Assembly (NCBI GenBank): GCA_964586515.1
Contig: CAZPGJ010000001.1
Span: forward strand, 158,390-222,389
Source: an uncultured Dehalococcoidales bacterium
GTDB lineage: Bacteria; Chloroflexota; Dehalococcoidia; GIF9; AB-539-J10
Reading direction: 5' to 3'
Length of the DNA: 64,000 bases
Program-made: the position numbers and the translations under genes
Shown: positions 7,687-43,278 of the stretch, piece after piece
Layout of the letters: each line of letters opens with the position of its first letter
Numbering within the stretch: the first letter of the stretch is position 1
The notes under the pieces: generated by a model
What the model was told of the DNA's origin: nothing
Database searches by the model: none
What the model saw: only the letters and a program-made list of their open reading frames with translations

Positions 7687-7728
7687 CCCAGCACTCAGAG
7701 CTCTGAGTGCTGGGTTGCATTATTTTTA
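7687..7728 (+). terminator. Intrinsic terminator downstream of ftsZ: palindrome CCCAGCACTCAG-agct-CTGAGTGCTGGG followed by a T-rich tract. This is copy 1 of the CCCAGCACTCA palindromic repeat family.
   Basis: 12-bp perfect stem with a 4-nt loop and a TTGCATTATTTTTAT tail, at the end of the dcw operon. Confidence 0.6.
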
Positions 7729-7743
7729 TAATTGTGTCATAAT
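7715..7743 (+). promoter_or_regulatory. Putative pyr operon promoter (-35 TTGCAT 7715-7720, 17-nt spacer, extended -10 TGtCATAAT 7735-7743)
   Basis: Hexamers with canonical spacing, upstream of the PyrR-binding leader. Confidence 0.4.
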
Positions 7744-7760
7744 TAATTAGACCTTTAAAT

Positions 7761-7858
7761 CAGTCCAGTGAGGCTGGTAAGGGGTGATATGCTTAAGCCC
7801 ACCGCAATAAAAGCATCAACTGAGACCTCTTGCCAGTTTGAAGGCAGGGGGTTTTTTT
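7761..7858 (+). promoter_or_regulatory. PyrR-responsive attenuator. Binding-loop motif CAGTCCAGTGAGGCTGG at 7761-7777. Terminator hairpin CCTCTTGCC-agtttgaa-GGCAGGGGG plus a T7 tract at 7826-7858, immediately before pyrR.
   Basis: The motif matches the conserved PyrR RNA-binding loop (ARUCCAGAGAGGCU-like) known from Bacillus pyr leaders. A stem plus U-run lies just upstream of the pyrR start. Confidence 0.55.
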
Positions 7859-7859
7859 G

Positions 7860-8405
7860 ATGCCTGAAAAGATTCTCCTGACCTCAAGGGAGATGGAGCG
7901 GGCGTTAGCTCGTATCGCCCACGAGATTGTAGAAAAAAATAAGGGTGCGGAAGGAGTTGTGCTCGTAGGCATGCGAACTCGGGGAGTGCCTTTAGCCAAG
8001 CGCATAGCTAAAATAATCGAAGGCTTCGAAGGAATCCCGATTCCCGTGGGTGCTCTGGACATTGGCCTTTATCGCGATGACATCTCACCCTCGGAATTAA
8101 AGTCGGCGAACCAGAGCCATACTGATATCCCTACTGGAATCACCAATAGGCAAGTAATCCTGGTTGACGATGTTCTCTATACTGGACGGAGCATTCGCGC
8201 CGCTATGGATGCCCTGATAGATTTGGGGCGTCCGAAGGCTATCCAATTAGCTGTGCTGATCGACCGTGGCCATCGAGAACTTCCCATTCGGGCCGATTAT
8301 GTCGGTAAAAATATACCAAGCTCTAAAGACGAAGAGATACAAGTTCAACTGGCGGAGGTTGATGGTGTAGACAAGGTGGTAATCGTTAATATGTCCAACG
8401 GGTAA
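7860..8405 (+). CDS. pyrR: Bifunctional pyr operon attenuation regulator / uracil phosphoribosyltransferase PyrR
   Basis: ORF 7857..8405 (TTG then ATG; ATG 7860 preferred). PRTase motif [17 protein letters not shown] and PyrR-family N-terminus. Confidence 0.85.
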
Positions 8406-8431
8406 CTAGAGGAAATTGAGGGGGAGACATC

Positions 8432-9835
8432 ATGAATCTGGCAAATAGAAATCTGGTGACCATAGACGATTTATCCAACGGGGAAATCGAAGCATTGTTT
8501 TCTCTGGCAGACGAGATGGCGAACTCCCCAAATGAGCAGGCCGGACTATGCCAGGGGAAGATCATGGCCAGCTTGTTTTTTGAGCCAAGCACCCGGACCA
8601 GGCTGTCTTTTGAAGCTGGGATGCTCAGACTCGGGGGGCGTGTCATAACTGCCGTGGACATAGGGGCAAGCTCTCTGGCCAAAGGCGAAAGCATTGCTGA
8701 TATGGCGAAGGTGGTCGGAAGCTATGCCGATATAATTGTTATCAGGCACCCTTGGGAAGGAGCTGCCAGGGTGGTTGCCGACTATGCTGGTGTCCCCGTG
8801 ATAAATGCTGGCGACGGGAGCCATGAACATCCCACCCAAACCTTATGCGACCTCTACACTATTAGAAAAGAAAGGCAGACCATTAAGGGCCTCAGAATTG
8901 CTCTGTGGGGAGACTTGAAACACGGGCGAACAGTACATTCCCTGATCTATGCCTTAGCTAGGTTTGGTGCCACTATCCTTTTCTGTCCTGGCCCAGGGTT
9001 TGAGATGCCGGAGCATGTCCTCAGGAGACTAAACACAGAGTATAAAGGTGAGTTGAAAAATTGTAGGCATCTGAATCAAGAACTTGGAAGGAAGCTCTTC
9101 CCTATCGATGCCATATACTTGACTCCAAGTAGCCCGCATCAACTTGCCATGTTGCCTGACATAAGTATCCGAGTGGAACTGAAGGCGGGGGTTGACGCCC
9201 TTTATGTCACCAGGCTTCAAAAGGAAAGGCAGGCGCCCACGGTGGAGGAACAAGGGTTGAAAAAAGGCTACCCTGTGGTAGATAAAAAACTCCTTAAAGG
9301 AAAGGAGTTTAAGAAAACACTTGTTATGCATCCGCTGCCCCGTGTTAATGAGTTGACCCATGATGTGGATGCTGACCCCAGGAGCATGTATTTCAAGCAG
9401 GCAGCCTATGGGGTGCCCGTCAGAATGGCGCTCCTGGCCCTTTTATTGGGCGCCAAGGAAGTCACAATGCCTGAAGAAGAAGATTCCTTTATCTGGAAGA
9501 TAGATTATCCCGTTTATAAGCGGGATTCCGGTATTAAGTGCCCCAATAGAAACTGCGTCTCAAACCAGGAAACAGAAGTAAGATATATAAAGCCTGAGTT
9601 CAAAATAGTGAGTCGCGAGCCTTTGACATTGCGGTGCGTCTATTGCGACCATGAGCTTCATCCTCAATATGTCGCCAGCTCAGATTGGCATGAAGGGAAG
9701 CTGGAAAATAAGAAATATCACAGCGCTGACAGCCACTTCAGCCGGAAGATTAAACCCGAGAATCTGATTATTTTTGCCTCGGAAAAAGAAGCTGAGTCTC
9801 AGGGGTTCAAGCCCAGCAGCTATGTCAGACAATGA
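8432..9835 (+). CDS. pyrB: Aspartate carbamoyltransferase catalytic chain fused to a C-terminal PyrI-like zinc-ribbon domain (467 aa)
   Basis: ATCase motifs (STRTR, HPxQ, HPLP) in residues 1-~330. C-terminal ~135 aa contains CPNRNC...RCVYCDHE, resembling the PyrI zinc domain. Confidence 0.8.
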   Translation: MNLANRNLVTIDDLSNGEIEALFSLADEMANSPNEQAGLCQGKIMASLFFEPSTRTRLSFEAGMLRLGGRVITAVDIGASSLAKGESIADMAKVVGSYADIIVIRHPWEGAARVVADYAGVPVINAGDGSHEHPTQTLCDLYTIRKERQTIKGLRIALWGDLKHGRTVHSLIYALARFGATILFCPGPGFEMPEHVLRRLNTEYKGELKNCRHLNQELGRKLFPIDAIYLTPSSPHQLAMLPDISIRVELKAGVDALYVTRLQKERQAPTVEEQGLKKGYPVVDKKLLKGKEFKKTLVMHPLPRVNELTHDVDADPRSMYFKQAAYGVPVRMALLALLLGAKEVTMPEEEDSFIWKIDYPVYKRDSGIKCPNRNCVSNQETEVRYIKPEFKIVSREPLTLRCVYCDHELHPQYVASSDWHEGKLENKKYHSADSHFSRKIKPENLIIFASEKEAESQGFKPSSYVRQ

Positions 9836-11265
9836 ATAATGAAGCTATCTTTCTGCTTATCCGTGGCGGCCATATAATTGACCCCAGCCAGGGCATAGAC
9901 CAGGTTGGTGACTTGCTTATTGCTGAGGGCAAGGTTGTGCACTTGGGAGGCGAAATACCAACTGTCATTGCGAGTGACCTGCCCGCCTGCTCGCCGCACG
10001 ACTTCGGCAGGCGAGCCAAGGCTTGGCAGGCGGGAGCGAAGCAATCTCAAGCAATTGATGCCACTGGATTGATTGTCTGCCCCGGATTCGTAGACCTCCA
10101 CTGTCACCTCCGGGAGCCAGGTTTTGAGGATAAGGAAACAATCGCCACAGGGACAAAGGCAGCCGCCATAGGCGGCTTTGCCACTGTCTGCTGTATGCCG
10201 AATACCAATCCTCCCCTCGATAGCTCCTCTGTTCTAGACCTGGTGAAGAGAAATACGAGCAGGGAAAGCTTCATCACGGTTCTTCCCATAGGCTGCATTA
10301 GCAAAGGTAGGAAAGGCAAGGAATTGACCGATATGGCCAGGCTGGCAGAGGCCGGGGTGGTTGCTTTCAGCGACGATGGCGACCCAGTGAAAAGCTCACA
10401 GCTCCTGCGTCGTGCTATGGAACATAGCCGCGACCTGGGCCTGCCAATCATTGACCATTGCGAGGATAGAGCGCTGAGCGACAATGGAATCGTAAACGAA
10501 GGCCAGATATCTGCTAAGTTAGGTCTAAAAGGAATTCCTGCAGCCGCAGAAGAGGTCATTGTGGCGCGTGACTTGATTCTGGCAAAGTTGACCAGGGCCA
10601 GACTTCACATAGCCCATGTCAGCACCAGGGGCTCTGTAGAGCTTATTCGCCATGCCAAGGAAGAAGGGGGTTCAGTAACCGCTGAGGTTACACCCCACCA
10701 CCTGACTCTGACCGAGGACGCAATCACAGGCAGGTCTCACAATGACTCGCTTAATACTAACGCCAAGGTGAACCCACCTCTACGCACCAGCGAGGATATC
10801 GAAGCCTTAATCAGGGGACTCAATAACGGTGTAATCGATGCTATTGCCACCGACCACGCACCTCATACTCTGGCCGATAAAAATTGTGGGCCAGAGCTAG
10901 CCGCTTTTGGCATCAGCGGCTTTGAAACCGCTTTTGGCTGCCTCATGAGCCTGGTGCATGAAGGGAAAATAGACTTGACCATGCTGCTCTCCAAGCTCAC
11001 CTGTGAGCCAGCGAAAGTCATCAGTAGAAATGGTGAACTAGGCACCTTAAAGGCCGGCGCCCCGGCTAATATCAGCATACTCGACCCTGACCGGGAATGG
11101 ATAGTGGATAGCCGCAATTTTGCCTCTAAGGGCAAGAATACTCCTTACGATGGCTATAAGTTTAAGGGCAAGGTGATGGCAACCATAGCAAGCGGCAGGA
11201 TAGTTTACACTGATAACTCCCTTGTCATTGCGAGGAACAAAGTGACAAAGCAATCTCATGGCTAG
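9832..11265 (+). CDS. pyrC: Dihydroorotase carrying an in-frame ~85-bp palindromic repeat insertion near the N-terminus
   Basis: Amidohydrolase motifs (PGFVDLHCHLREPG, DHAPH). Residues ...VIASDLPACSPHDFGRRAKAWQAGAKQSQ... are encoded by the repeat at 9964-10048. Confidence 0.85.
   Translation: MNNEAIFLLIRGGHIIDPSQGIDQVGDLLIAEGKVVHLGGEIPTVIASDLPACSPHDFGRRAKAWQAGAKQSQAIDATGLIVCPGFVDLHCHLREPGFEDKETIATGTKAAAIGGFATVCCMPNTNPPLDSSSVLDLVKRNTSRESFITVLPIGCISKGRKGKELTDMARLAEAGVVAFSDDGDPVKSSQLLRRAMEHSRDLGLPIIDHCEDRALSDNGIVNEGQISAKLGLKGIPAAAEEVIVARDLILAKLTRARLHIAHVSTRGSVELIRHAKEEGGSVTAEVTPHHLTLTEDAITGRSHNDSLNTNAKVNPPLRTSEDIEALIRGLNNGVIDAIATDHAPHTLADKNCGPELAAFGISGFETAFGCLMSLVHEGKIDLTMLLSKLTCEPAKVISRNGELGTLKAGAPANISILDPDREWIVDSRNFASKGKNTPYDGYKFKGKVMATIASGRIVYTDNSLVIARNKVTKQSHG
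9964..10048 (+). repeat. Copy of the ~85-bp GC-rich structured repeat (GTCATTGCGAG...GCGAAGCAATCTC), in frame inside pyrC
   Basis: Near-identical to copies at 16497, 17207 and 26456 and to the inverted copy at ~34843. Internal complementary arms CCCGCCTGC/GCAGGCGGG and CTCGCC/GGCGAG. Confidence 0.85.
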
Positions 11266-12445
11266 GAAAGCGATTTTAGTCCTCGAAGATGGCTCGGTTT
11301 ACGAAGGCGAGGCCTTTGGCGCCAAGGCTACTACCTATGGTGAGGTAGTATTCAGCACGAGCATGACCGGCTACCAGGAGATGCTCACAGACCCTTCTTA
11401 TGCTGGTCAAATTCTAGTCCCCACCTATCCTTTAATTGGCAACTATGGCATCAACGAGTCCGATTTTGAATCTAAGCAAATTCAGGTCAGGGGCTTTGTT
11501 GTTCGAGAATATTGTCCTCGGCCCAGTCACTGGCAAAGCACCCGTACTTTGCACGAGTTTCTGTTGGCTTACGGCATTCCTGGCATCAGCGGCATAGATA
11601 CCCGTGCCTTAACTCGCCGCCTGAGGTCAAGCGGGGTGATGATGGGCATTCTCAGTTCAGAGATGACCATTGAAGAGGCATCGGCGGAGCTAAAAAGCTT
11701 ACCCAGATATGACTCTGTTAATTTTGTCCATCAGGTTAGCACTGAAAAATCATATGAGTGGCAATCCGGTATGCCTGTCACTGCGACCCCATCTTCCCTG
11801 TCATTGCCAGGAGCGTCAGCGGTTGCGAGGCGAAGCCGAAGCAAACTCGGCGAGATTCCTCGCTCACGCTCGGAACAGGCTCCGCAATCCCGTATAGTAG
11901 TTATCGACTACGGTCTGAAATACAACATACTGCGCATTTTGAGCCAGCTTGGCTGTCAGGCAACTGCTATCCCGTGCACTGCTTCAGCAAAAGATGTCCT
12001 AGCCTTAAATCCCGATGGTATTGTTCTCTCCCCTGGCCCTGGCGACCCTGCCCTCCTTGGTGACATAGCGGAGACGGTAAGAAATCTTATAGGTAAGAAG
12101 CCGATAATGGGCATATGCCTGGGGCATCAGCTTATAGGCAAGGCTTTAGGAGCACAGACATTCAAATTGAAGTTTGGACATCGTGGTGGTAACCATCCTG
12201 TGCGGGATTTGACTACCAGCAGAGTTTATATCACCGCTCAGAATCATGGCTATGCCCTGGATGCTGATACCTTGAAGGAAGGACTTGAGGTCAGCCACAT
12301 AAACCTGAACGATGGCACGGTGGAGGGGCTCCGCCACCGGGACTTGCCCATCCTATCCATTCAGTACCACTCCGAAGCTTCCCCCGGTCCCTGGGATAAT
12401 AAGTATCTATTTGAGAGATTTCTGGAGATGGTGGGGAGAACATGA
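11258..12445 (+). CDS. carA: Carbamoyl-phosphate synthase small (glutaminase) subunit, with a ~35-aa repeat-derived insertion in the interdomain linker
   Basis: N-terminal CPSase small-chain domain and class-I GATase triad region (GICLGHQ, HGYA). The linker PSSLSLPGASAVARRSRSKLGEIPRSRSEQAPQSR is encoded by degenerate repeat sequence. Confidence 0.85.
   Translation: MARKAILVLEDGSVYEGEAFGAKATTYGEVVFSTSMTGYQEMLTDPSYAGQILVPTYPLIGNYGINESDFESKQIQVRGFVVREYCPRPSHWQSTRTLHEFLLAYGIPGISGIDTRALTRRLRSSGVMMGILSSEMTIEEASAELKSLPRYDSVNFVHQVSTEKSYEWQSGMPVTATPSSLSLPGASAVARRSRSKLGEIPRSRSEQAPQSRIVVIDYGLKYNILRILSQLGCQATAIPCTASAKDVLALNPDGIVLSPGPGDPALLGDIAETVRNLIGKKPIMGICLGHQLIGKALGAQTFKLKFGHRGGNHPVRDLTTSRVYITAQNHGYALDADTLKEGLEVSHINLNDGTVEGLRHRDLPILSIQYHSEASPGPWDNKYLFERFLEMVGRT
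11776..11870 (+). repeat. Degenerate/composite copy of the GTCATTGCGAG...GAAGCAATCTC repeat family (GTCACTGCGACC...GTCATTGCCAGG...CGAAGCAAACTC...GAGATTCCTCGCTC), in frame inside carA
   Basis: Terminal motifs of the family are recognisable with mismatches; the interior has diverged. Confidence 0.5.
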
Positions 12446-12735
12446 AAAATCCAGAGGTATTTATTAACATTTTAAAAGAGAATTGGCTTCACGCCCGGCA
12501 CATAGAGATTGTGAGGATGCTGTTTGCCAACATATATGCAGCAATTATTGCTGGGGTGTTAGCTTATCTAGGTAAATCGGGATTACATATTATGCCTCTC
12601 GCTGCTCTTCTTGTGATATCAATATTTTGGCTTTGTTTTACATTAAAACAAAATGCTGAATTTGCCAATCACATGAAATCAATCGAAAATATTTTTAACG
12701 ATGGGAAAATATCTCTGGGAGAGCAAAATGAGTGA
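12442..12735 (+). CDS. Hypothetical small membrane protein (97 aa, two predicted TM helices) between carA and carB
   Basis: ORF overlaps the carA stop (ATGA). Hydrophobic segments IYAAIIAGVLAYLG and LAALLVISIFWLCF. Low-GC segment. No recognisable family. Confidence 0.35.
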   Translation: MKNPEVFINILKENWLHARHIEIVRMLFANIYAAIIAGVLAYLGKSGLHIMPLAALLVISIFWLCFTLKQNAEFANHMKSIENIFNDGKISLGEQNE

Positions 12736-12913
12736 AGAAAATATGTTGGCATGCCTCTCTCAGCCAAAGGGGGAATATGGAGGATACTCAGAGTAAGCAC
12801 CATATTTGTCGTTTTTTATGTGGCGGTTATTATAACACTCGTTTCACTGATAATTTATGTTTTGGTGCGTTAGTTAAGTGAAGAAATACCCAGAATTCCC
12901 TATAAGAAACAAA

Positions 12914-15900
12914 ATGTCCAAAATATCTAAAGTCTTAGTCATTGGCTCGGGGCCGATAATCATCGGACAGGCGGCGGAGTTCGATTATTCCGGGACTCAG
13001 GCATGCCGAGCACTGAGAGAAGAGGGCGTGACCACGGTCCTGGTGAACTCGAACCCGGCCACCATCATGACGGACGAGGGCATTGCTGATATCGTTTATA
13101 TCGAGCCGCTCACGGTGGAAGTCCTGGCTCGCATAATTGAAAGAGAGCGTCCCGATGGCTTATTGCCTACACTGGGTGGGCAAACAGGGCTCAATTTGGC
13201 GGTGGAGTTAGCCGATGCCGGCGTACTCGACAAGTATCATGTGCGGTCTCTGGGCACACCTATAGAAACGATAAAGAAGGCTGAAGAAAGGTCTTTGTTC
13301 AAGCAGCTTCTTCTTGATATTGGCGAGCCTGTGCCTCCAAGCAAAACTGTAAAATCGGTGGAAGAAGCAAAAGAACTGGCAAGGTCCATAGGTTTGCCTC
13401 TCATTGTCCGCCCTTCCTATACTCTGGGAGGCACTGGCGGCGGCATCACTTACACTATGAAAGAGCTCGAACAGACCGTTGCTAATGGTCTGGATTCCAG
13501 CATGAGCCACGAGGTTCTGGTGGAGCAATGTGTTTTAGGTTGGAAGGAAATTGAATTTGAAGTCATGCGAGATGCTGCCGACAACTGCATCGCTGTCTGT
13601 ATCATGGAGAACATTGACCCCATGGGCGTTCATACCGGGGATAGTATCGTAGTAGCCCCCAGCCAAACTCTCACCGACAAAGAATACCAGATGCTCAGGT
13701 CGGCCAGTTTAAAAATCATAAGGGCGCTGAAAATCGAGGGTGGCTGCAATATACAGTTCGCCCTTACTCCACATCCCATAGTTGCGGAAAAATGGGCTCC
13801 GGACCAGAAGGGAGTCACAAGAAGCCAATATCACGTAATTGAAGTTAACCCTCGTGTCAGCCGTAGTTCGGCTTTAGCCAGTAAAGCCACGGGCTATCCT
13901 ATTGCCCGGGTCGCTGCCAAAATAGCCATAGGCAAGAGACTCGATGAAATCCCCAATAGGGTCACAGGCAAAACACTGGCGTCTTTCGAGCCAGCTCTGG
14001 ATTACTGCGTAGTCAAGATTCCCAGATGGCCCTTCGATAAATTTGCTTTGGGTGACCGAAAAATTGGCAGTCAGATGAAAGCCACTGGTGAGGTAATGGC
14101 CATTGACAGGTGTTTTGAGGCTGCTCTGCAAAAGGCAGTGCGCTCCCTGGAATTCGGCAAACGCACCCTGCTCTGGGAAGACCTCAGTTGGAGTAGAGGG
14201 GAGGGGCTTAATTCCTATCCGCTTTACCCTAACGACTTAAGACTATGGGCGATCATGGCAGCGCTGCGAAGGGAGGCCAGGCCCGAAGAGCTCTCACAGG
14301 TCACCGGCATAGACCCCTGGTTTATTTATAAGTTCCAGAATATTGTGGACATGGAGAGGAGGCTTCTTTCCGAACCGTTGACACCGGAGCTTTTATGGGA
14401 GGCGAAGAGGCTGGGCTTTTCCGATGAGCAAGTAAGCACTTTGGCCGATAGGTTGCCAGAGCAGGTAAGACAGGCTCGCCATCAATGGAAAATTTGTCCG
14501 GTGTACAAGATGGTGGATACCTGTGCCGCCGAATTTGATGCTGAGACCCCTTATTTCTACAGCACTTATGAAAGAGAAAACGAAGCTGATTCCCTGGCAG
14601 AGAAGAAAGCTGTGGTTATCGGCAGCGGGCCGATACGCATCGGGCAGGGAATTGAGTTCGACTATTGCTGCGTTCATTCAGCCTGGGCGCTTCAAGAGAT
14701 AGGCATAAAGAGCATCTTGGTCAATTCTAATCCCGAGACAGTTTCCACTGATTTTGACACCAGTACTCGCCTCTATTTCGAAGCATTGGACGAGGAAAGC
14801 ATCCGAAATATACTTCAGAATGAGAGTAACAACGGTTCTGCTCCACCATCCATCGTCCAGCTTGGTGGACAAACACCTATTAATTTGGTTGGAGTCTTAG
14901 CTCGCAACAATTTGCCGATACTTGGCTCGAGCGCCGAAGCTATAGACATAGCTGAAGACCGCCGTCGCTTTGAAGATTTCCTGGACAGACTAGGTATTCC
15001 TCAGCCGCCAGGGGCTGGAGTAACATCCATTGAAGCGGCATTAAATGTAGCCAAGTCCTTAGGTTATCCTGTGTTAGTGCGCCCTAGCTATGTCCTGGGG
15101 GGCCGGGCTATGGAAATCGTGTATAACGAGCCTGAGTTAATCCGCTACCTGACATTAGCTCTGGAGATGGATAGCCAGCATCCTGTGCTTATTGATAAAT
15201 ACTTCCAGGGTAAAGAAGTCGAGGTAGATGCCATTTGCGATGGCGAAAAGGTTCTTATTCCTGGCGTGATGGAGCATATTGAAAGAGCTGGCGTACATAG
15301 CGGTGATGCCTTGGCTATCTACCCGGGAATCAACCTGACTCCGGAAGAAGTAGATACTATGGTGGATTACACCATGAGGATTGGACCGGCCCTGGGAATT
15401 AAAGGGTTGATGAACGTTCAGATGGTAATAATGAGGGACCCAGCACTCAACTCGTTGAGTGCTGGGCGCTCAACGGTATATGTTTTTGAGGTAAATCCCC
15501 GCGCCAGCCGAACCGTACCTTTTATCTCCAAGGTAACTGGCGTGCCCATGGTAAGAATTGCCACTAAGGTCATGGCTGGGATTAGCCTCAAGGAGCAAGG
15601 CTATGAAGGCGGGTTATGGAAGAGACAAAAGTTGGTAGGTATAAAGGCTCCCGTTTTTTCTATGTCAAAATTGACTGGAGTAGATAGCTACCTCGGTCCT
15701 GAGATGAAATCCACAGGCGAGGTTATGGGGATTGATTACAGCTTTGAGGCGGCCCTGGTTAAGGCCCTTTTAGCTGCTGGATTGATGCTGCCTCAAGGAG
15801 GTAGTCTGCTACTTAGCATTGCCGACAAGGATAAAACTGAAGCCGAGCCTCTGATTAAGCAATTGCATTCCCTGCGCCACGAGCTCTACGCCACGGAGGG

Positions 15901-16213
15901 GACCGCAGCGATGATTGAATCTATGGGGTTCCCGGTAAAAATGGTGACCAAGAAGCTAAGCGAAGGACATCCTAACGTTGTTGATGTTATTCAAGATAAT
16001 TCTGTGAGCGGAGTGATTAATACTATCACTGGAGGGCGCATTCCGCTAAAAGACGGCTTAGATATCAGGCGCGCCGCGGCAGAAAAGAGGATACCATGCT
16101 TCACCTCATTAGATACTGCTCGGGTAGCTATAGGAGCATTAGTAAATAGTAGACAAATCTTTAACGTTCAACCACTCAGGGAGTACTTAAGAAAATCAAA
16201 AGGCAAAAGTTAA
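12914..16213 (+). CDS. carB: Carbamoyl-phosphate synthase large subunit, carrying an in-frame 30-nt palindrome insertion
   Basis: ORF 12878..16213; conserved start [20 protein letters not shown] at 12914. Two ATP-grasp halves and an MGS-like C-terminus. Residues [10 protein letters not shown] are encoded by the palindrome at 15439-15466. Confidence 0.9.
15439..15466 (+). repeat. Copy 2 of the CCCAGCACTCA palindrome family (CCCAGCACTCAA-ctcg-TTGAGTGCTGGG), in frame inside carB
   Basis: 28-bp near-perfect palindrome. The G>A change on the left arm is compensated by C>T on the right arm relative to copies 1 and 3. Confidence 0.7.
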
Positions 16214-16316
16214 AAATCAAAATTACAATTCAAAATGGAAAAATGCTTCGTTTTTGATTTTTGCTCTGTCATTTTGCTTTTTTATCTTTAAATTTTGATA
16301 TTGTTTAGGTTTTAGC
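16214..16316 (+). repeat. AT-rich intergenic repeat (family with ttttgatttttg / gtcattttg / caaaatg motifs) between carB and pyrK
   Basis: Shares motifs with the spacers at 32584, 45087, 45636, 47752 and 50380. Confidence 0.45.
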
Positions 16317-17195: not shown

Positions 17196-17206
17196 CCACC
17201 CACTCC

Positions 17207-17291: not shown

Positions 17292-17310
17292 TTTGGAAGG
17301 AGGTAAGAAT

Positions 17311-23553: not shown

Positions 23554-24057
23554 TGTTTATTCAGGCAATTAAGACCCTTGCGTAGCAATCTGTACATCAA
23601 TATAATAGCATTTGTCAATATTTACGGCAAATTATTACTTGTCTTTAAGGGGTAGTTGCAGAATGATATATAAAAATAGCTCCCGGTGGTAGGACCCCAC
23701 GCCTGTACAGACGCTGCCATCTTCAGCAGATGACCAACCATTCCCCAGGAGCTTTTCTTACTACTATCAAAATTATAGTAAAATGTTATAGTATTGTCAA
23801 TATTTGATTGGCATTTGCAACGAGGTGGGGTTATGGATAAATTGAAAACCAATGTTTTGTATTATGGCTACAAGGTGATTCACGGGAACACCATGGTGTT
23901 TATCGTGAACAGTATGAAAACAAGTTTAAGGAGTATAAGTGAATAGTCATCTCATAGAAATCCTTGAGGACGAAGAACTCAAAGCTAGAATACAGAGGAA
24001 ATTGCCCTACTTATTTAACATTGCTGAGCTAGAAAGCTCCCGAGCAGGAAAAATTGG

Positions 24058-34068: not shown

Positions 34069-34070
34069 AA
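34012..34070 (-). repeat. Cluster of GTCATTGCGAG / GAAGCAATC motifs (two tandem terminal motifs) at the hisD 5' end
   Basis: Plus strand reads GATTGCTTCGTCACTTTGTTCCTCGCAATGACGAGGGGAAAAGGCTCGCAATGAC. Confidence 0.6.
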
Positions 34071-34081
34071 AAGAAGACTTG

Positions 34082-35557: not shown

Positions 35558-35734
35558 AACGTCATTCTAAACATTATCAGCACCGAGTCACAACAGTGTG
35601 CCGATTACGGATGTCTTTGAAGCATTTTATCATCTACACCATCCATTGTATTACTTGCCATGTTGCCCAACATTTTGTATGTTTGTGAGGTGCTAAACGG
35701 ACTTGAGGTATCCAAGTGAACCGCAAACACCGTA

Positions 35735-36418
35735 TTATGTGCTGTACCCCTTGTTTTTCTCAATATCCACATTACTTATAGCAACATTAGGAAAGCAAAC
35801 TGCCATCATTCCCATCAGTACAATCAGGTAGCAATAAGACTGAAAGCAAATAAAGTCACATAGCTCAGGATCATTAATGATTTTTCCCACAGAGTAGCCC
35901 AATCTCGTATCATCAAGTTGAACTATGTTCCATTGTGAACCAACAGGGTCACCATGCACAATGTGACCAAAGGTTTCGCATATCTGCTTCGCTGTTGTGA
36001 TGTCGGCATTGTCGCTCATTGTTTCGAGCATTTTTGTGAGGCTTGGTCTCTCCCGCAATTGCCAACCATTTTGCCAAACTTCAACTTCATCAGGATAGGT
36101 GTTGAGATATGAAATGATGGCAGCACGTTCGATCAGCGGTCGCATAAGCACTAAGGCTCCAAAAAGGTAACCCTGCCGAATGAGTTCCCGGATTGTCAAA
36201 GCAAGGTTGATTCCCTGAGGGATGATCTGGCAAGCTGCTTTTTGAAGGTCCGATAACTCAGCTTGGTGGGTGTAAGCGGCAATATCTGCATTTGCCTCCA
36301 AGCAAGATATGATAACCTGATCGAATTGAAAAACCGACTCTCTGCCTAGATAAGGCTCATTTGATGGCAAATACACCGCTTCATGATTATTTTTTTTGTT
36401 TTCTAGGGGACTATTCAC
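35735..36418 (-). CDS. Hypothetical protein (227 aa), lower-GC gene between hisG and the hisZ-like gene
   Basis: Long ORF; no recognisable family. Confidence 0.4.
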   Translation of the reverse strand: MNSPLENKKNNHEAVYLPSNEPYLGRESVFQFDQVIISCLEANADIAAYTHQAELSDLQKAACQIIPQGINLALTIRELIRQGYLFGALVLMRPLIERAAIISYLNTYPDEVEVWQNGWQLRERPSLTKMLETMSDNADITTAKQICETFGHIVHGDPVGSQWNIVQLDDTRLGYSVGKIINDPELCDFICFQSYCYLIVLMGMMAVCFPNVAISNVDIEKNKGYST

Positions 36419-36488
36419 AAATTTACCTCGTTGCCGACATTTTGTCTAACTTGTGTGTAACTGCACTGCGGTTATGCACAACACTCTT

Positions 36489-37727
36489 TCATTTCGCGCC
36501 TATTATGTCAATAATATCTGCTGGGGAGGTTACGTTTCGCTGTCGTCCTTGCTTACAGTCCTTGAGCCTGAACGGCTTCTTGGCGGAAACCGAGACAACC
36601 CAGCGATAGGTACTCTCTTCCTGACCACCTAAGCCAAGCTCCGTGGCATATCCGGCGTCACGAAGCGATTCCGCCACAGCAAAGCACTTCTTTACTATTT
36701 CGGGAGTCGATTCCTTACCTTTAACTAAAATTCCACGTTCGCCCTTTTTCTCTTTCTCCAGCGGCAGCAATTTCATTATAGGGTCCACATATAGGGCAAA
36801 TCCGCAGGCAGGGACGTCCTTGCCATTCATAAGGGGCACAAGCTTATCATATCTTCCTCCGCCACCTATCTTTTCCCCAGCAGCCAGGAACTGAAAACAG
36901 ATTCCAGTATAATACTCAAAACCATGTATGGCCGCGATATCGATTTCATAGCTGCAACCCAGGTTATCCAGTAATGTGGTAATGCTGAGGAGGTCCTCCA
37001 GGCTGGACTTGAAGTCCTGCGACGCTTTGGGGAATGAAGCTCTGACATTGTGTAGAAAGCTGCTCGATTTCCCCTTGAGGCCCAATAACGCAGCCATGAG
37101 CCTGTCGATTTCGGGGCTAGTGGATTTCGCCCTGGTCAATGCTTGCCAATTTCCTTCTAAAATGCGGTTCGTCATCTTAGCTTCCTCAGCGGGGCTGAGC
37201 TTAAACTCCTTGAGCAGCGCCTTCACCAAGCCAGCATGGGACACTTGCAGCCCGACATTGCTGATGCCAAGGCTGCGGATAACCTCTTCAGCCAGCAGAA
37301 CTATCTCCACATCCGGGGCAGATTGGGCACCACCGAAAAACTCAGCACCACATTGCCAGCGCTCCCTGTTCTCTTTTCCCGTTCCCTCGAAAGCAAAGAT
37401 ATTAGTCACATAGAAAAGCCTGGCTAATTCTTGTCCGCTCAGATTGTCGATGTAGAGCCTGGCCACAGGAATAGTACCATCTGGCCTCAAGACGACTCGC
37501 TCACCGCTCCAGCCATCCCAATCGAGAAAGGAATATACCTTGCTTAACATGCTCGGCGTGAGTGTTCCCGTAGCTGTAAACAAATAGAGGTATTCTAAAG
37601 TTGGCGTCCTCACCTCCTGGTAGCCCCAGTTACGACAACAAGTCCGGAAGGTATCTTCAATACGACGAAAGCGCAACATGTCCTCGGGGAGCAAGTCCTG
37701 CATTCCCTTACACTTTTGGTTTTTCAT
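36489..37727 (-). CDS. hisZ: Histidyl-tRNA-synthetase-like protein with degenerate class-II motif 2; probable ATP-PRT regulatory subunit HisZ (or a HisS paralog)
   Basis: HisRS-like N-terminus (MQDLLPEDMLRF...GYQEVRTPTLE) and motif-3-like GGGRYDKLV. Motif 2 lacks the conserved FRYE/arginine (FAFEGTGKENRERWQ). Located next to the his operon. Confidence 0.5.
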   Translation of the reverse strand: MKNQKCKGMQDLLPEDMLRFRRIEDTFRTCCRNWGYQEVRTPTLEYLYLFTATGTLTPSMLSKVYSFLDWDGWSGERVVLRPDGTIPVARLYIDNLSGQELARLFYVTNIFAFEGTGKENRERWQCGAEFFGGAQSAPDVEIVLLAEEVIRSLGISNVGLQVSHAGLVKALLKEFKLSPAEEAKMTNRILEGNWQALTRAKSTSPEIDRLMAALLGLKGKSSSFLHNVRASFPKASQDFKSSLEDLLSITTLLDNLGCSYEIDIAAIHGFEYYTGICFQFLAAGEKIGGGGRYDKLVPLMNGKDVPACGFALYVDPIMKLLPLEKEKKGERGILVKGKESTPEIVKKCFAVAESLRDAGYATELGLGGQEESTYRWVVSVSAKKPFRLKDCKQGRQRNVTSPADIIDIIGAK

Positions 37728-37837
37728 CCTTAGCCTATTCTACACTAAGCTGTGTCCAGCTTCAATAATGATGAACCTGAGAGTTTTTTTGTTGCTTTTA
37801 GTCGCTTAGTTTATAATTAACTTGAGGATAATGCGAG

Positions 37838-39154
37838 ATGCTGAGAACCGGGCTTAAGGTTTTCTTCCTTGCCTGCCTTGTGATGCCAATAGTTGCGGGT
37901 TTAGGAGGCAGCCTGATTGCTGCCGCCAACCCTACTACTGTAGAAGTTCTTACCGTGGATGGCACCATTGTGCCCGTGATAGCTGATTATATTGATCGGG
38001 GTATCAGCCAGGCGGAGAAGGATGGCGCTACTGTCTGCATAATTGAGCTAAATACCCCCGGTGGGCTTCTTGACTCAACCGAGAAGATAGTCCAGAGGAT
38101 TATGAATGCCGACGTGCCCATCGTGGTTTACGTCTCACCCAAAGGCGCCTGGGCTGCCTCAGCGGGAACCTTCATTACTCTATCTGCTAATATAGCGGCG
38201 ATGACGCCGGGCACGACTATCGGCGCTGCCCATCCCGTAACTACTGGAGGAGCGAATATATCAGAAGACGAAATGAAAAAAATAGTCGAGTTCTCGGCTA
38301 AGTGGATGAGGACTATAGCTGAGGAGCGTGGCCGCAATATGGAAGAAGCCGAGCTAGCAGTTACGGAAAGCAAAGCATTTACCGATGTTGATGCCTTGGA
38401 ATGTAACCTTATCAACCTGCGAGCTGACAGTTTGGAAAGCCTTATTTCCCAAATCAATGGCTGGAACGTTACTTTAGCCAGTGGCAAGGAAGTCACCATT
38501 GATACTACGAACTATGGTTTAACTAGAAACGGAATGAATGACATTGAGAAATTTCTGCAAACCATCAGCGACCCCAACATTGCCTACATCCTCTTTACCC
38601 TGGCTACCATAGGGTTGATTGTTGAGATTTCCAGCCCGGGGCTGGTTTTTCCAGGGGTGGCTGGTGGCATCAGCTTATTCCTGGCGTTTTACTCCCTGGG
38701 TGTGCTTAATGCTTACTGGGGAGGCATAGCACTTATTTTACTTGCCGTGGGACTTTTTATCGCCGAGTACTTCACCCATAGTTTTGGGCTATTGACTGCC
38801 GGGGGGGCAGCCTCGTTGGTCATGGGCTCGTTGCTATTATTCAGCCACAGCCCGGGCATAGCGGTAGATAAGAGGCTAATTGCCGGGGTTACAGTAGGCT
38901 TTACCGCTTTCGCTGTCTTTGTCATCGGCGCCATTATCCGCGGGCAAAGGCGCCGCAAGGCTACCGGGGCTGAGGGGATGATTGGGACAATAGCCATCGC
39001 CAAAACACCCCTCGACCCTACGGGCACAGTTCTGGCCCAGGGAGAATTATGGACGGCGTCATCGGAAAGCGGCAGAATAGCACCGGGTGAAGAGGTGATA
39101 ATATCCAGAGTGGAAGGATTGAAATTATGGGTGGCAAAGAAATTAAAAGAATAG
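37838..39154 (+). CDS. NfeD-family membrane-bound serine protease (ClpP-like domain + TM segments + C-terminal OB-fold), the stomatin-operon partner protein
   Basis: ClpP-class region (IIELNTPGGLLDSTEKIV...AASAGTFI), multiple TM helices, and an NfeD-type C-terminal OB domain. Confidence 0.75.
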   Translation: MLRTGLKVFFLACLVMPIVAGLGGSLIAAANPTTVEVLTVDGTIVPVIADYIDRGISQAEKDGATVCIIELNTPGGLLDSTEKIVQRIMNADVPIVVYVSPKGAWAASAGTFITLSANIAAMTPGTTIGAAHPVTTGGANISEDEMKKIVEFSAKWMRTIAEERGRNMEEAELAVTESKAFTDVDALECNLINLRADSLESLISQINGWNVTLASGKEVTIDTTNYGLTRNGMNDIEKFLQTISDPNIAYILFTLATIGLIVEISSPGLVFPGVAGGISLFLAFYSLGVLNAYWGGIALILLAVGLFIAEYFTHSFGLLTAGGAASLVMGSLLLFSHSPGIAVDKRLIAGVTVGFTAFAVFVIGAIIRGQRRRKATGAEGMIGTIAIAKTPLDPTGTVLAQGELWTASSESGRIAPGEEVIISRVEGLKLWVAKKLKE

Positions 39155-39166
39155 GAAGCTAGTACC

Positions 39167-39472
39167 GTGGAAATACCAGGTCCAATTATCATAGCCATAG
39201 TTTTTGCCGTCGCTTTTATCATTTTCGTTATTTACGCCATCGTAAAAGGCCAGATGCGAAAACTCTCCGCTGGTGTAGAGGAAATGATAGGAAAGGAAGC
39301 TGTAGTGCAAACGACCCTCAACCCTAAGGGCACGGTTCTGGCTGAAGGAGAGCTATGGACAGCTATAGCCGAAGGTAGTAAAATAGAACCCGGAGAGGAG
39401 GTGATAATAACCAAAGTAGAAGGATTGAAATTGTGGGTGACCAAAAAATCTAAAGAAAAGGAGAAGGAATGA
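39167..39472 (+). CDS. Short NfeD-like protein (TM helix + OB-fold), a paralog of the C-terminus of the upstream gene
   Basis: GKEAVVQTTLNPKGTVLAEGELWTAIAEGSKIEPGEEVIITKVEGLKLWV parallels residues 370-430 of the preceding protein. Confidence 0.7.
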   Translation: MEIPGPIIIAIVFAVAFIIFVIYAIVKGQMRKLSAGVEEMIGKEAVVQTTLNPKGTVLAEGELWTAIAEGSKIEPGEEVIITKVEGLKLWVTKKSKEKEKE

Positions 39473-40236
39473 ACGTATTTATTTATGTTATTATCGCAAT
39501 AGTAGTAATAATACTTCTGTCAGCAGCTATCAAGATCGTTCGAGAGTATGAAAGAGGGGGTGTTTTCCGCCTGGGCAGGTGGGTTGGCCTCAGGGGGCCA
39601 GGTCTGGTCTTCATTATACCTTTCGTTGAGATTATGCGGAAACTTGACCTTCGGGTAATCACCATGGATGTTCCCCAGCAAGAGTGCATCACCGTGGACA
39701 ATGTTACTGTCAGGGTTGATGCCGTAATTTACTTTCGGGTGGTCGAGGCCTCAGATGCTATTCTCAAGGTACTCGATTATATCAAGGCAACTTCGCTGCT
39801 TGCCCAGACCACTTTGCGAAATGTTGTCGGACAATCTACGCTGGATGAGTTGTTAGGCCAGCGGGACAGGCTCAACGAAAAGATACAGACGGTGGTTGAT
39901 GAAGGCACTAATCCCTGGGGTATAAAGGTGAGCATGGTGGAGGTTAAGGATGTGCAACTGCCGCAAACAATGCAGCGGGCTATGGCAGCCCAAGCTGAGG
40001 CTGAGCGAGAGAGGAGAGCCAAGGTGGTTCATGCCGAGGGTGAAGCCCAGGCGGCAGAGAAATTGGCCGCGGCTGCCAAAATTATTTCCAGTCAGCCTTC
40101 AGCTCTACAGCTTCGCTATTTGCAGACATTGACTGCCATTGTTACAGAAAAGACTAATACCATACTGTTCCCCATACCCATAGATATAATAACTCCTCTT
40201 TTGGGCAAGGCTAGTGGGTCAGAGAAAAGTAAATAA
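39469..40236 (+). CDS. SPFH/band-7 (stomatin/prohibitin-like) protein
   Basis: SPFH domain pattern (IKIVREYERGGVFRLGRW...DVPQQECITVDNVTVRVDAVIYFRV) and a coiled-coil AEAERERRAK region. Confidence 0.85.
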   Translation: MNVFIYVIIAIVVIILLSAAIKIVREYERGGVFRLGRWVGLRGPGLVFIIPFVEIMRKLDLRVITMDVPQQECITVDNVTVRVDAVIYFRVVEASDAILKVLDYIKATSLLAQTTLRNVVGQSTLDELLGQRDRLNEKIQTVVDEGTNPWGIKVSMVEVKDVQLPQTMQRAMAAQAEAERERRAKVVHAEGEAQAAEKLAAAAKIISSQPSALQLRYLQTLTAIVTEKTNTILFPIPIDIITPLLGKASGSEKSK

Positions 40237-40283
40237 TGTGACATAACCCGTGCCAATAGCACTTAGCGAGGGCGCTTAGTAAT

Positions 40284-40455
40284 GTCATTCTGGGAGTCCA
40301 AATGAAGTTGGACGAAGAATCTCTGGACATTGTCGTGAGCTATGCGAAGGGCTCAGAATGACACATCATTCTGTCATTGCGAGGCATGAGACGGTGCCGA
40401 AGCAATCTCAGTGGGGCAGAGGATTGCCACGCACCTTTCAGGTGCTCGCAATGAC
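40284..40455 (+). repeat. Compound cluster of TIR-bounded short elements (GTCATTCTGGG...CTCAGAATGAC; GTCATTGCGAG...GAAGCAATCTCA...CTCGCAATGAC) in the SPFH-mcm spacer
   Basis: Several nested inverted terminal motifs of the GTCATT[GC/CT]GAG family read directly. Confidence 0.6.
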
Positions 40456-40517
40456 AAAAGTGATACCTGGATCCGAGAGACTCCATCGGGCAAATTTTCT
40501 TAACTCAGGGGGTAGCT

Positions 40518-42173
40518 ATGGCCAATAAAACTAAGCAGGAATGGCATGAAACTACACTGACTCCGGCTTTAAAGCGTGCCGCCGAGCGCCAGGAGAAGTT
40601 TGAAACCAGCTCCGGCGTGGAGATTGACGCTGTTTACACACCGGAGGACTTGGTAAATTTTGACTACGCTCGAGATTTAGGCTACCCCGGAGAGTATCCC
40701 TTCACTCGGGGTGTCCAGGCAAATATGTATCGGGGTAGAATATGGACAATACGCCAGTACGCTGGCTTTGGTACTGCTGAGGAAACTAACCAGAGGTACC
40801 GCTATCTCCTAGAGCAAGGGCAGACGGGCCTGAGCATAGCCTTCGACCTGCCCACACAAATTGGCTATGACTCTGACCATCCCTTAGCTAGAGGCGAGGT
40901 GGGCAAGGTCGGTGTTGCCATAGACAGCCTCCGGGATATGGAGATTCTTTTCCAGGATATACCTCTGGATAAGGTAAGCACCTCCATGACCATAAATGCC
41001 ACTGCCCCGATTCTTCTTGCCATGTATATTGCCCTGGGCAAGAAACAAGGAGTTGAGCTCGCTGAATTAAACGGCACTACTCAAAATGACATACTCAAGG
41101 AGTACATTGCCCGCGGCACTCACATCTTCCCACCCCGTCCTTCCATGCAGTTGACCACTGATATATTTGCCTATTGCGCCAAGCAAGTCCCTCGCTGGAA
41201 TACCATCAGCATCAGTGGTTACCATATACGAGAAGCTGGTTCCACCGCGGCCCAAGAAATTGGCTTCACCCTGGCTAACGGTATTGCTTATGTTCAGGCA
41301 GCTATTGATGCTGGACTTGATGTAGATACATTTGCTCCCAGGCTATCATTCTTCTTCAATAGCCATGTCAACTTTTTTGAAGAGATTGCCAAATTCAGGG
41401 CGGCACGCCGCCTCTGGGCGAAGATTATGAGAGAGAGGTTTGGGGCTAAAAATTCACGTTCCTGGATGCTTCGCTTCCACACTCAAACTGCCGGATGCAG
41501 TCTCACTGCGCCACAGCCACATAATAATATTATGCGGACAGCCATAGAAGCCCTGGCTGCAACCTTAGGAGGTACTCAATCACTGCACACTAACTCTTTT
41601 GACGAAGCTTATGCTCCGCCTTCTGAAGAAGCAGTAACCATAGCTGTGCGGACTCAGCAAATACTAGCTTATGAAAATGGCATTGCCGATGTTGTTGATC
41701 CCCTTGGTGGCTCTTATTATATAGAACATCTAACCGACAGCCTGGAAAAGGAAGCTGGGGAGTATATCACCAAAATTGATAACCTTGGTGGTGCCGTAGC
41801 TGCCATAGAGCAAGGATATCAACAGAGGGAAATTCAGGACTCCTCTTACCACTACCAGAAAGAAATTGAAAGCGAAAAACGTACCGTGGTAGGGGTAAAC
41901 AAATTCGTCTCTCCCTACCCTAAAATAGTGGGGCTGCTGCGAGTCAAGCCGGAAGTGGAAAAAAGACAGAGGGAGAGGACTGCCCAGGTTAGGAAAGACA
42001 GAAACAACGACAAAGTCAAGCAGGCGCTTAAGCGATTGGAAGATGTCGCCCGCAGCAAGGATAATACCATGCCCGCCTTTCTTGAATGTGTGGAGGCCTA
42101 CGCCACCGTGGGTGAGATATGTAATGTACTGCGCGGGATTTTTTCTACCCAAAAGGAATTCCTGGTTTTTTAG
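40518..42173 (+). CDS. Methylmalonyl-CoA mutase, large catalytic (N-terminal, TIM-barrel) subunit
   Basis: 551 aa with MCM substrate-binding barrel motifs. No B12-binding domain; that is encoded separately at 42860. Confidence 0.85.
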
Positions 42174-42341
42174 GAGGTAGTTTTACCATTTGAGGACGCA
42201 AAAAATGTAGTTGCCCAATTCATTGGGCAAAGAGCCTGATAAATCAGGCAACTACAGAAATCTGGAGGTGAAAGCCTTCAGAATGCCTAAACGTGAACGG
42301 GAAAACAAAATTAAACAGCCTATGGTTTTAAAGGAGGTGAA

Positions 42342-42740
42342 ATGGCCAAAAAAGTTGACCACATCGGTATTTTAGTCAGCAACCTCGATGAAGCGATAAA
42401 ACTTTACGAAGATTGTTTCGGTGCTGAGGTTGGCAAGATTGAAACCCTCTCGGAGCGAGGAGTAAAGGCAGCCATCCTTTCCCTAGCCCAGGGCGCCAAT
42501 CTGGAACTTTTGGAACCACTTCCCGGCAGTAATATGGCTAAAGTCCTGGAGAACAGAGGGGAGGGCCTTCATCATATAACGTTTGAAGTTGACGATGTAG
42601 ATAAGGAGCTTAGCCGCCTCTCTCAAAGGGGGATAGAATTAATTGATAAGAAGGCTCGCCCTGGTTTAGAGGGCATGGTAGCTTTCATTCACCCCAAATC
42701 GCTTAGAGGGGTGCTCGTTGAGCTTTGTCAGAAAACCTAA
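42342..42740 (+). CDS. Methylmalonyl-CoA epimerase (VOC/glyoxalase fold)
   Basis: MAKKVDHIGILVSNLDEAIKLYE...GLHHITFEVDD; VOC family, between the MCM subunits. Confidence 0.75.
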   Translation: MAKKVDHIGILVSNLDEAIKLYEDCFGAEVGKIETLSERGVKAAILSLAQGANLELLEPLPGSNMAKVLENRGEGLHHITFEVDDVDKELSRLSQRGIELIDKKARPGLEGMVAFIHPKSLRGVLVELCQKT

Positions 42741-42859
42741 ATCAACCCCCAAAAAGTCTTGCGACTCTTTGGGGATCTAGGGTAAATTTGATTCTAAATT
42801 AAAAGGGCCCTCGCGAAAATCGCAAGATTTTCGTGGGTGGTTTAGAGAGGGAGTAGACT

Positions 42860-43270
42860 ATGAACAAAGGTAGGATTCGTGTTCTGCTAGCCAAGCCTGG
42901 TTTAGATGGGCATGACCGAGGTGCTAAAGTGGTAGCGAGGGCTCTGCGGGATGCCGGCATGGAGGTAATCTATACTGGTATCCGACAAACTCCCGAGATG
43001 ATTGTCGAGGCAGCTATCCAGGAGGATGTAGATGTTATTGGGTTGAGCATCCTGTCGGGAGCTCATTTAGAGCTCTTTCCACCAATCGTAGAAGGATTAA
43101 GGAAGAAAGGAAGAGCAGATGCCCTGGTTATCGCTGGTGGCATAATACCTGAGGATGATATTCCCGCCTTACAACAAATGGGCGTAAAAGCTGTTTTTGG
43201 CCCGGGCACTTCCACAGAGGACATCATCCGCTTCATCCACAAGGAAATAACCCAGCACTCAGCGTGCTGA
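42860..43270 (+). CDS. Methylmalonyl-CoA mutase B12-binding subunit (cobalamin-binding Rossmann domain, DxHxxG)
   Basis: [16 protein letters not shown] motif. The last codons and the stop lie inside the CCCAGCACTCA palindrome. Confidence 0.85.
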
Positions 43271-43278
43271 GTGCTGGG
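43251..43278. repeat. Copy 3 of the CCCAGCACTCA palindrome family (CCCAGCACTCAGC-g-TGCTGAGTGCTGGG) between convergent mcm-B12 and pyrD; putative bidirectional terminator
   Basis: 13-bp stem. It supplies the C-terminal residues and stop of the plus gene and sits 8 nt from the stop of the minus gene. Confidence 0.65.

Follow-up and report, generated by a model that had tools for sequence, protein, structure and literature searches.

A short hairpin element, probably mobile and REP-like, shared by a Dehalococcoidia bacterium and genomes of several other phyla

A 64,000-nt stretch of DNA from an uncultured Dehalococcoidia bacterium (hereafter, the window) contains three copies of a small hairpin element, which we term H, and the same element recurs in unrelated bacterial phyla. 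Close relatives differ in whether H is present at four sites, namely carB, Mfd, the junction between a B12-binding subunit gene and pyrD, and the ftsZ-pyrR spacer. H is probably a non-autonomous mobile hairpin similar to the repetitive extragenic palindromic (REP) sequences of bacteria, copied by an activity that acts in trans and filtered by selection into permissive places.

All three copies in the window are perfect and have the layout CCCAGCACTCA-6 nt-TGAGTGCTGGG. The coordinates and sequences given for these palindromes in a preliminary description of the window were all borne out on inspection, and its gene assignments agree with Pfam. The copies are as follows.

Copy 1, 7687..7714, no strand: loop GAGCTC; a perfect 28-nt palindrome in the ftsZ-pyrR spacer.
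Copy 2, 15439..15466, + strand: loop ACTCGT, 12th stem pair A:T; in frame in carB, where it is read as (D)PALNSLSAG.
Copy 3, 43251..43278, no strand: loop GCGTGC; at the 3' ends of the B12-binding subunit gene (+) and pyrD (-).

That the palindromes form a genuine dispersed family, as had been proposed, is supported both by shuffled sequences and by the occurrence of the same arms in other genomes. Six half-sites with at most one mismatch were found in the window compared to 0.93 expected from shuffles, and six or more were reached in 0/100 shuffles. A looser scan allowing up to three mismatches per arm recovered the same three copies and no degenerate ones in the window, and 0 in 20 shuffles. 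The pattern CCCAGCACTCA-N(2-12)-TGAGTGCTGGG was also searched in 185,579 species-representative genomes (596 Gb). The same 22 arm bases were found in 106 loci (120 copies) of 46 species-level assemblies, while the chance expectation for 22 fixed bases in 596 Gb is approximately 0.4 hits by an arithmetic estimate. Carriers span at least six phyla, including Chloroflexota, Bacillota, Patescibacteria, Nitrospirota, Omnitrophota, Thermotogota and others, and are distributed as follows.

Dehalococcoidia/Chloroflexota: 13 of 46 assemblies.
Bacillota: 17 of 46 assemblies, including the isolates Neomoorella stamsii, Desulfofundulus australicus and Desulfallas sp.
Patescibacteria: 8 of 46 assemblies.
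Thermodesulfovibrionales, Omnitrophota, Thermosipho, Fermentibacteria and Glutamicibacter: one genome each.
Unclassified: 3 of 46 assemblies.

A single metagenome-assembled genome (MAG) contributes up to ~20 H loci, and copies were also found on two viral contigs. As a control, the 8-bp core alone (AGCACTCA-N4-8-TGAGTGCT, 16 fixed bases) gave at least 120 hits in viral contigs, mostly A-tract/T-tract terminators of AT-rich phages at roughly chance frequency; it is therefore the 11-bp arms, not the 8-bp core, that define the family. BLAST of the 30-mer against plasmid and phage collections gave no match, a literature search with the arm sequence returned unrelated eukaryotic primers only, and keyword searches of the literature found no description of the H family. 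Several H hits lie at MAG contig ends, as might be expected if the palindromes had arisen by chance or as an artefact of assembly or adapters. Assemblers, however, break contigs at multi-copy sequences, so contig-end hits are expected, and the shuffle expectation is essentially zero. In-frame copies also keep long open reading frames (ORFs) open, and orthologous copies were recovered in assemblies produced independently by different studies as well as in cultured isolates. We regard the probability of such a coincidence or artefact as negligible.

The element can be written as R-CCCAGCACTCA-R-(loop)-Y-TGAGTGCTGGG-Y and usually comprises 28 nt plus one flanking base per side; in 84% of cases the left-hand base is a purine and the right-hand one a pyrimidine, making a unit of 30 nt. 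In a set of 104 distinct copies, the 11-nt arms are most often separated by 6 nt (59 copies) or 7 nt (22 copies), and the remaining spacers measure 2-12 nt. The two outermost bases of the spacer pair with one another in 55/59 copies of the 6-nt class and 22/22 copies of the 7-nt class, and the stem thus consists of 12 bp with a covarying 12th pair (in the 6-nt class, G:C in 40 copies, A:T in 12 and C:G in 3). GC is frequent at the centre of the loop, whose second and fifth bases are often identical (GAGCAC/GTGCTC), which gives polarity to an otherwise symmetric element. Individual copies are predicted to fold as RNA with energies of -24 to -29 kcal/mol and z-scores of about -6 (copy 1: -24 kcal/mol, z = -5.6). 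With regard to coding, the left arm is open in three frames (PST, PAL and QHS) and the right arm in two (ECW and SAG), the third being TGA, and because H is a palindrome this pattern is the same on both strands. The open frames of the whole element are PSTQ..ECW and PAL..LSAG.

Pairing of the arms is maintained by double changes. In an alignment of 51 distinct 28-mers, most of which were ascertained via exact arms, 97.7% of cells pair and 5/12 pairs show double changes; 0/500 shuffles reach the observed values, and shifting the partner column abolishes pairing. Moreover, among imperfect non-orthologous copies met incidentally in the loci, those with one change per arm are exactly compensatory in 7/7 cases. 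The preliminary description had noted a compensatory pair in copy 2 and had argued from it for selection on, or copying of, a hairpin structure. The G:C to A:T difference is real and corresponds to the covarying 12th pair, and the maintenance of pairing by double changes stands. Sub-variants of a hairpin that is copied account for this pair better than selection at these three sites would; orthologous copies decay asymmetrically in situ (L210, L216 and L110; sequences outside the window are cited by locus number). The G:T wobbles seen in single-change copies were considered as a sign of RNA-level selection and rejected, as orientation relative to transcription was uncontrolled.

The sites of the three window copies were compared with those of relatives, several Dehalococcoidia/Chloroflexi MAGs being 86-94% identical to the window at the DNA level. 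The genes concerned are listed here.

ftsZ, 6487-7617: FtsZ.
pyrR, 7857-8405: PyrR (Pfam).
carB, 12878..16213, + strand: host gene of copy 2, with Pfam CPSase_L_D1/D2/D3 and MGS.
Methylmalonyl-CoA mutase (MM_CoA_mutase) large subunit gene, 40518-42173: upstream of the B12-binding subunit gene.
B12-binding domain protein gene, 42860..43270, + strand: methylmalonyl-CoA mutase small subunit-like, Pfam PF02310; its 3' end lies within copy 3.
pyrD, 43259..44203, - strand: dihydroorotate dehydrogenase, Pfam PF01180; its 3' end lies within copy 3.

Copy 2 is located in a beta-turn of the second ATP-grasp domain of CarB, where it results in a net gain of seven residues, and its peptide stands where the closest relatives have ENG. 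In an alignment with E. coli CarB (1a9x), the site corresponds to the tight turn between NVQFAVKN and NEVYLIEVNPR, in a region whose length varies among homologues. The 120 closest CarB relatives, which are up to 91% identical, all lack the insert. In two DNAs with empty sites, L108 and L109, the sequence is ATGAGGGA-AAACGGY-CGCTCAACGG, and the window has the 28 nt of H between ATGAGGGA and CGCTCAACGG; seven bases were thus replaced, for a net gain of 21 nt. The earlier proposal that this segment is an insertion rather than ancestral is supported by both comparisons, and copy 2 is young and lineage-specific.

Reading through H is not restricted to CarB, as the element lies within long ORFs of unrelated proteins in several phyla, always in the PSTQ..ECW or PAL..LSAG frames. 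The in-frame copies outside CarB are in the following proteins.

Mfd: one site in three Dehalococcoidia and another site in a fourth.
A DNA polymerase III alpha-like ORF (DnaE).
A CobQ-like protein: two Bacillota genera.
A hydrogenase-maturation-protease-like protein and a NadC-like protein.

At the Mfd site, the empty allele reads CAGCCGCGA-GCAGGY-AA and the filled allele CAGCCGCGA-CCCAGC...GCTGGG-AA, such that 6 bases are replaced by 30 (net +24 nt) and the replaced GCAGGY resembles the H terminus GCTGGG. At both coding sites, carB and Mfd, the right junction has a GG common to H and target. A comparable replacement was observed in a second palindromic repeat family, in which the 7-nt apex of L190, GAGATTGCCACGTCG-CCTTCGG-CTCCTCGCAATGACA, is replaced by H in L106. 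More generally, H lies at the apex of longer flanking palindromes in 5.6% of cases compared to 1% in the null.

Copy 3 contributes the last six codons and the TGA stop of both convergent genes, the B12-binding subunit gene (+) and pyrD (-); the preliminary description had assigned this role to it for the former, and it applies to both. Each ORF stops at the TGA in the arm of copy 3 distal to that gene, and the two ORFs overlap by 12 nt within the element. The orthologous copies in L058 and L096 are perfect, while decay in that of L110 (90% protein identity), which departs from the arms by 2+2 bases, comprises two mismatches, a compensatory change from A:T to G:C and a flipped loop. In L111 (84% protein identity) the site is empty and the two stop codons are 8 nt apart.

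Copy 1 lies between a conserved 17-bp hairpin and a conserved TTGCAT...CATAAT stretch upstream of the pyrR leader. Orthologous ftsZ-pyrR spacers were sampled without bias, through PyrR homologues. A perfect H is present at this site in the window, L002 and L021, and a copy with one mismatch in L210; L216 and L218 have three mismatches, all in one arm, and L214 retains a heavily decayed relic. In L192 and L200, which are not sisters by ftsZ identity, an unrelated ~95-nt segment is found instead (L192 8759-8868 and the equivalent position of L200), and this segment was not repeated elsewhere in the DNA examined. The state of the site does not track ftsZ identity (80-94%), and copy 1 is old. Its location is a typical permissive slot. 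From the histories of the three sites, resident copies drift much as the surrounding spacer does, with no strong constraint in place.

Copy 1 had also been proposed to terminate the ftsZ operon. The sequences do not support such a role, and copy 1 is no canonical terminator: its U-tract lies at a distance, ftsZ has a different conserved hairpin behind it, and two relatives carry unrelated DNA in place of H. The T-run begins 8 nt past the copy 1 stem (downstream sequence TTGCATTATTTTT), and copy 1 was not called in a terminator scan of the + strand. The other hairpin, at 7630-7667 directly 3' of ftsZ, is a 17-bp perfect stem (TTGGGGAAAAGGGTAGC / GCTACCCTTTTCCCCAA) that is not a member of the H family; it is kept in every relative examined, with paired substitutions (e.g. 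AGGAAAGGGGTAGC...GCTACCTCTTTCCT in L200), has no T-run after it and is probably the real ftsZ 3' structure. On the other side of copy 1, a highly conserved pyrR leader occupies 7715-7856. It begins at the edge of copy 1 with TTGCAT-17 nt-CATAAT, which is promoter-like and was not called in the scan. There follow AGACCTTTAAATCAGTCCAGTGAGGCTGG, which we take to resemble a PyrR-binding loop, and then a GC stem and T-run just before the pyrR start; no PyrR element was called by Rfam in this leader.

H copies were assigned to context classes and compared to random positions in the same loci. The 58 copies used lie outside two composite families, and genes were approximated by an ORF heuristic instead of being called.

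Inside long open frames: 38% of H copies, 72% of random positions.
At a single gene end, or between the ends of two convergent genes: 24% of H copies, 5.8% of random positions.
Elsewhere between genes: 38% of H copies, 22% of random positions.

H is thus enriched at gene 3' ends, as the preliminary description had anticipated, and depleted but still present inside genes. Such an enrichment, which includes positions between convergent genes, would also suit a host-beneficial RNA or transcription element (a terminator, a 3'-end stabiliser or an intercistronic processing hairpin) that is kept by selection at each site, with dispersal being secondary. The very stable hairpin and its covarying stem are consistent with this role, as are copies located between trpB and trpA and between cistrons of a ribosomal-protein operon, the latter forming arrays in a Saccharibacteria MAG that resemble bacterial interspersed mosaic elements (BIMEs). 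Like intrinsic terminators, H is a GC-rich perfect stem-loop found at gene 3' ends; unlike them, it lacks a directly following U-tract, copies 2 and 3 having no T-run, and it also occurs inside ORFs. Some of these in-frame copies are in essential genes, where a terminator would be harmful. Furthermore, copy 1 is dispensable, having been replaced in L192 and L200 and having decayed in L214 and L216, and a generic hairpin function does not require identical arms across phyla. No Rfam family was called at the three window copies or in 8 repeat-rich loci. We consider it unlikely that H is maintained primarily as an RNA or transcription element.

A mobile, REP-like hairpin would account for these observations in the following way. 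H would spread by copy-and-paste as a hairpin-forming DNA unit, probably single-stranded, through a trans-acting, hairpin-specific enzyme that might be of the HUH/Y1 type. The mechanism would need or create perfectly paired arms, and such a requirement would give rise to variants with matched changes on both arms, while resident copies would later decay arm by arm. Insertion would occur without target duplication, with 6-7 target bases replaced at the two coding sites for which empty alleles are available. Retention would then be set by host tolerance, as two frames are open with small or polar residues and the third supplies TGA; these properties, present on both strands, would allow H to persist in spacers, at 3' ends to which it donates a stop and in surface turns of proteins (CarB, Mfd and DnaE). 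Once transcribed, H would form a hairpin of approximately -24 kcal/mol that may incidentally stabilise or pause transcripts.

REP sequences are found mostly between unidirectional or convergent genes, near 3' ends; those between convergent genes lie close to both 3' ends, and REP ends can supply stop codons (Di Nocera et al. 2013, PMC3733652). Some REPs are inside genes, many of which are replication or repair genes, and two superfamilies are defined by a GTAG or CGTC tag (PMC3733652). H resembles REPs and REPINs in being a palindrome in the 20-40-nt range with many dispersed copies, a bias towards gene 3' ends, stop-codon donation, some intragenic copies, BIME-like arrays with linkers and compensatory stem changes. 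It differs in that its stems are perfect, while those of REPs are imperfect, and in that no REP-associated tyrosine transposase (RAYT), the Y1/HUH enzyme by which REPs are mobilised, was seen near H.

Several observations weigh against a REP-like mobile element. H has no GTAG or CGTC tag and no tetranucleotide is conserved in its flanks, and REP families normally remain within a species or genus, whereas H arms occur in 46 species of several phyla. No target-site duplication was detected at the four compared sites (carB, Mfd, B12/pyrD and ftsZ/pyrR), and in the absence of a clean insertion with duplication at any of them, transposition in the strict sense is not demonstrated. Nor does any recurrent gene lie next to H, only common housekeeping families (histidine kinase, ABC ATPase and Mfd), and six-frame translations of 1.35 Mb of locus DNA yielded no ORF with a Y1/HUH motif other than antisense artefacts. 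Finally, the genome scan covered exact arms in species representatives and does not gauge copy number per genome or the spread of variants. In the same 1.35 Mb, no cognate RAYT gene flanked by repeats (a REPtron) was found; no transposase was found near H copies, and no parent insertion sequence with H-like ends in plasmid or phage collections. The ORFs between paired H copies are trpA, trpB and genes for an enoyl-CoA hydratase, a PAP2 protein, a methyltransferase and phage capsids. One candidate for a filled-versus-empty comparison, L037 against the window at ~47.6 kb, was dropped because the two are not orthologous.

The junctions and loops also bear on a mechanism that involves no enzyme, in which a nascent strand stalls at a strong hairpin during replication, takes an ectopic H as its template and then switches back at a microhomology. 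The lack of target duplication, the short replacements (6-7 nt in carB and Mfd, CCTTCGG in the second repeat family) and the right junctions, which share GG or pair GCAGGY with GCTGGG, are all compatible with such template switching. Loops also flip between orthologues: copy 1 orthologues carry GAGCTC (window and L216), GTGCTC (L210) or GAGCAC (L002 and L021), and those of copy 3 carry GCGTGC (window) or GCACCC (L110), the latter being one change from the reverse complement. In addition, the Saccharibacteria MAG contains an extended palindrome of 35 nt, CCCAGCACTCAGTGCTC-A-GAGCACTGAGTGCTGGG (L005 533-567, with similar sites in L054, L039 and L046), which looks as if an asymmetric loop had been copied into both arms. 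Loop flips and extended palindromes are hallmarks of template switching within palindromes, a mutational process known from the quasipalindrome literature, and here they point to hairpin or cruciform dynamics at the DNA level. Template switching, however, leaves the identical 11-bp arms in unrelated phyla unexplained, the microhomologies are only 2-4 nt long and just two clean empty-versus-filled pairs are available. We judge it distinctly unlikely as the explanation of H.

The H core, AGCACTC...GAGTGCT, is identical to the invariant core of the controlling inverted repeat of chaperone expression (CIRCE), the operator of HrcA, whose consensus is TTAGCACTC-N9-GAGTGCTAA (PMC545781), and both elements are conserved across phyla. 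It might therefore be supposed that H is a dispersed operator related to CIRCE, which is among the few operators conserved across phyla, and that HrcA or a similar universal dimeric DNA-binding protein accounts for its conservation. Per arm, 7/9 positions match, with the outer TT/AA of CIRCE being CC/GG in H. The CIRCE spacer is 9 bp, while the equivalent spacer of H is 8 bp in 59/104 copies, including all three in the window, and 9 bp in 22/104; the 29-nt variant of H, with its 7-nt loop, has exactly the N9 spacing. One genome carries both elements: at L019 6064-6090, a perfect canonical CIRCE, TTAGCACTC-gatggacta-GAGTGCTAA, lies directly upstream of groES, separate from the many H copies with N9 spacing in the same genome. 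H was nevertheless rejected as a member of CIRCE, given the N8 spacing in the window, the lack of chaperone neighbours and a loop whose length is not fixed (2-12 nt). CIRCE belongs to the promoter regions of groESL or hrcA-grpE-dnaK operons; at the copies examined, including Neomoorella L034, H has no chaperone gene beside it and does not precede groES, dnaK or hrcA, and no CIRCE-like site is present in the window. H also exists in tens of copies. Intragenic copies, decaying orthologues and matched two-arm changes inside the conserved core fit an operator poorly, and a match over an 8-bp core is at about chance level in large databases. An operator of this kind is very unlikely to explain H, and a relationship to CIRCE by origin or mimicry remains a lead.

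Other known elements were compared with H and rejected. Rickettsia palindromic elements (RPEs) are about 100-150 bp long and restricted to Rickettsia; H shares their in-frame behaviour alone, being 24-34 nt long and cross-phylum, and no Rickettsia genomes were among the H hits, such that it was rejected as an RPE on size and taxon (RPE-1/4/6 are named in PMC3733652). Miniature inverted-repeat transposable elements (MITEs) are, like H, short, non-autonomous, multi-copy and flanked by inverted repeats. The 'terminal inverted repeats' of H, however, are only 2-12 nt apart, and its assignment to MITEs was rejected because no target duplication was found at the four sites. The 11-6-11 layout matches a Xer/dif site, of which a replicon has one with a dif-like sequence; this identity was rejected as the spacer varies from 2 to 12 nt, a genome can hold many copies and some are intragenic.

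Tentatively, and with a low probability in our estimate, H could represent an undescribed class of minimal mobile DNA, a hairpin of ~28 nt that moves both inside genomes and from one to another across unrelated phyla. Movement would rely on a universal host function, such as template switching or a conserved hairpin- or CIRCE-binding protein like HrcA, or alternatively on a horizontally travelling, hairpin-specific enzyme, and H would remodel the termini and surface loops of proteins. Compared with known REPs, the novelty lies in an untagged, perfectly paired 28-nt unit that is identical across phyla. Small palindromic repeats are usually lineage-specific and extragenic, while the carriers of H are at least 46 species, mostly uncultured anaerobes, of several phyla; H alters the C-terminal ends encoded by two convergent genes and inserts peptide loops into the essential proteins CarB, Mfd and DnaE. 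Were an enzyme acting in trans behind this, the specificity of that enzyme for the hairpin would be unusually conserved and the enzyme itself horizontally mobile; if no enzyme is needed, H would rank as the smallest DNA known to propagate itself in bacteria. In practical terms, H causes contig breaks and spurious or extended ORFs in MAGs, and it could be used as a marker of recent DNA exchange between phyla in subsurface communities.

H is also embedded in, or associated with, larger repeats. A multi-copy repeat of ~190 nt in the Acutalibacteraceae MAGs JAZQMR and JAZQJR (L008, L011, L015 and other loci) has a long closing stem, GGGAGTGCCCTAAGTGAGCAT.../...ATGCTCGCTTAGGGCACTCCC, around three hairpins, of which the middle one is the 7-nt-loop form of H. 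Rfam gave no hit for this repeat and many contigs end inside it; in appearance it could be either a MITE of cloverleaf shape or an RNA gene. The second palindromic family mentioned above, GAGATTGC...CCTCGCAATGAC, is cross-phylum, translates to '...ARNDK'-like peptides and was found in a viral contig, Dehalococcoidales and Thermodesulfovibrionales; its apex can hold H. The sites are listed here.

L190, 1190-1240 and 1500-1600.
L106, 1173-1230.
L012, 6160-6215.

Two further features of the window and its relatives were observed. The window's sole Rfam hit is a DUF3800-VII RNA (RF02967) at 23670-23756 (-), with 48.5 bits compared to a gathering score of 36.2. Close relatives differ in what lies between carA and carB: there is a 97-aa ORF in the window (12442-12735), a 181-aa ORF in L210 (6023-6568) and, in L200 (13504-14589), L202 (8696-9781) and L207 (5352-6437), a 361-aa, defence-like gene with a CAP12-PCTIR_TIR domain.

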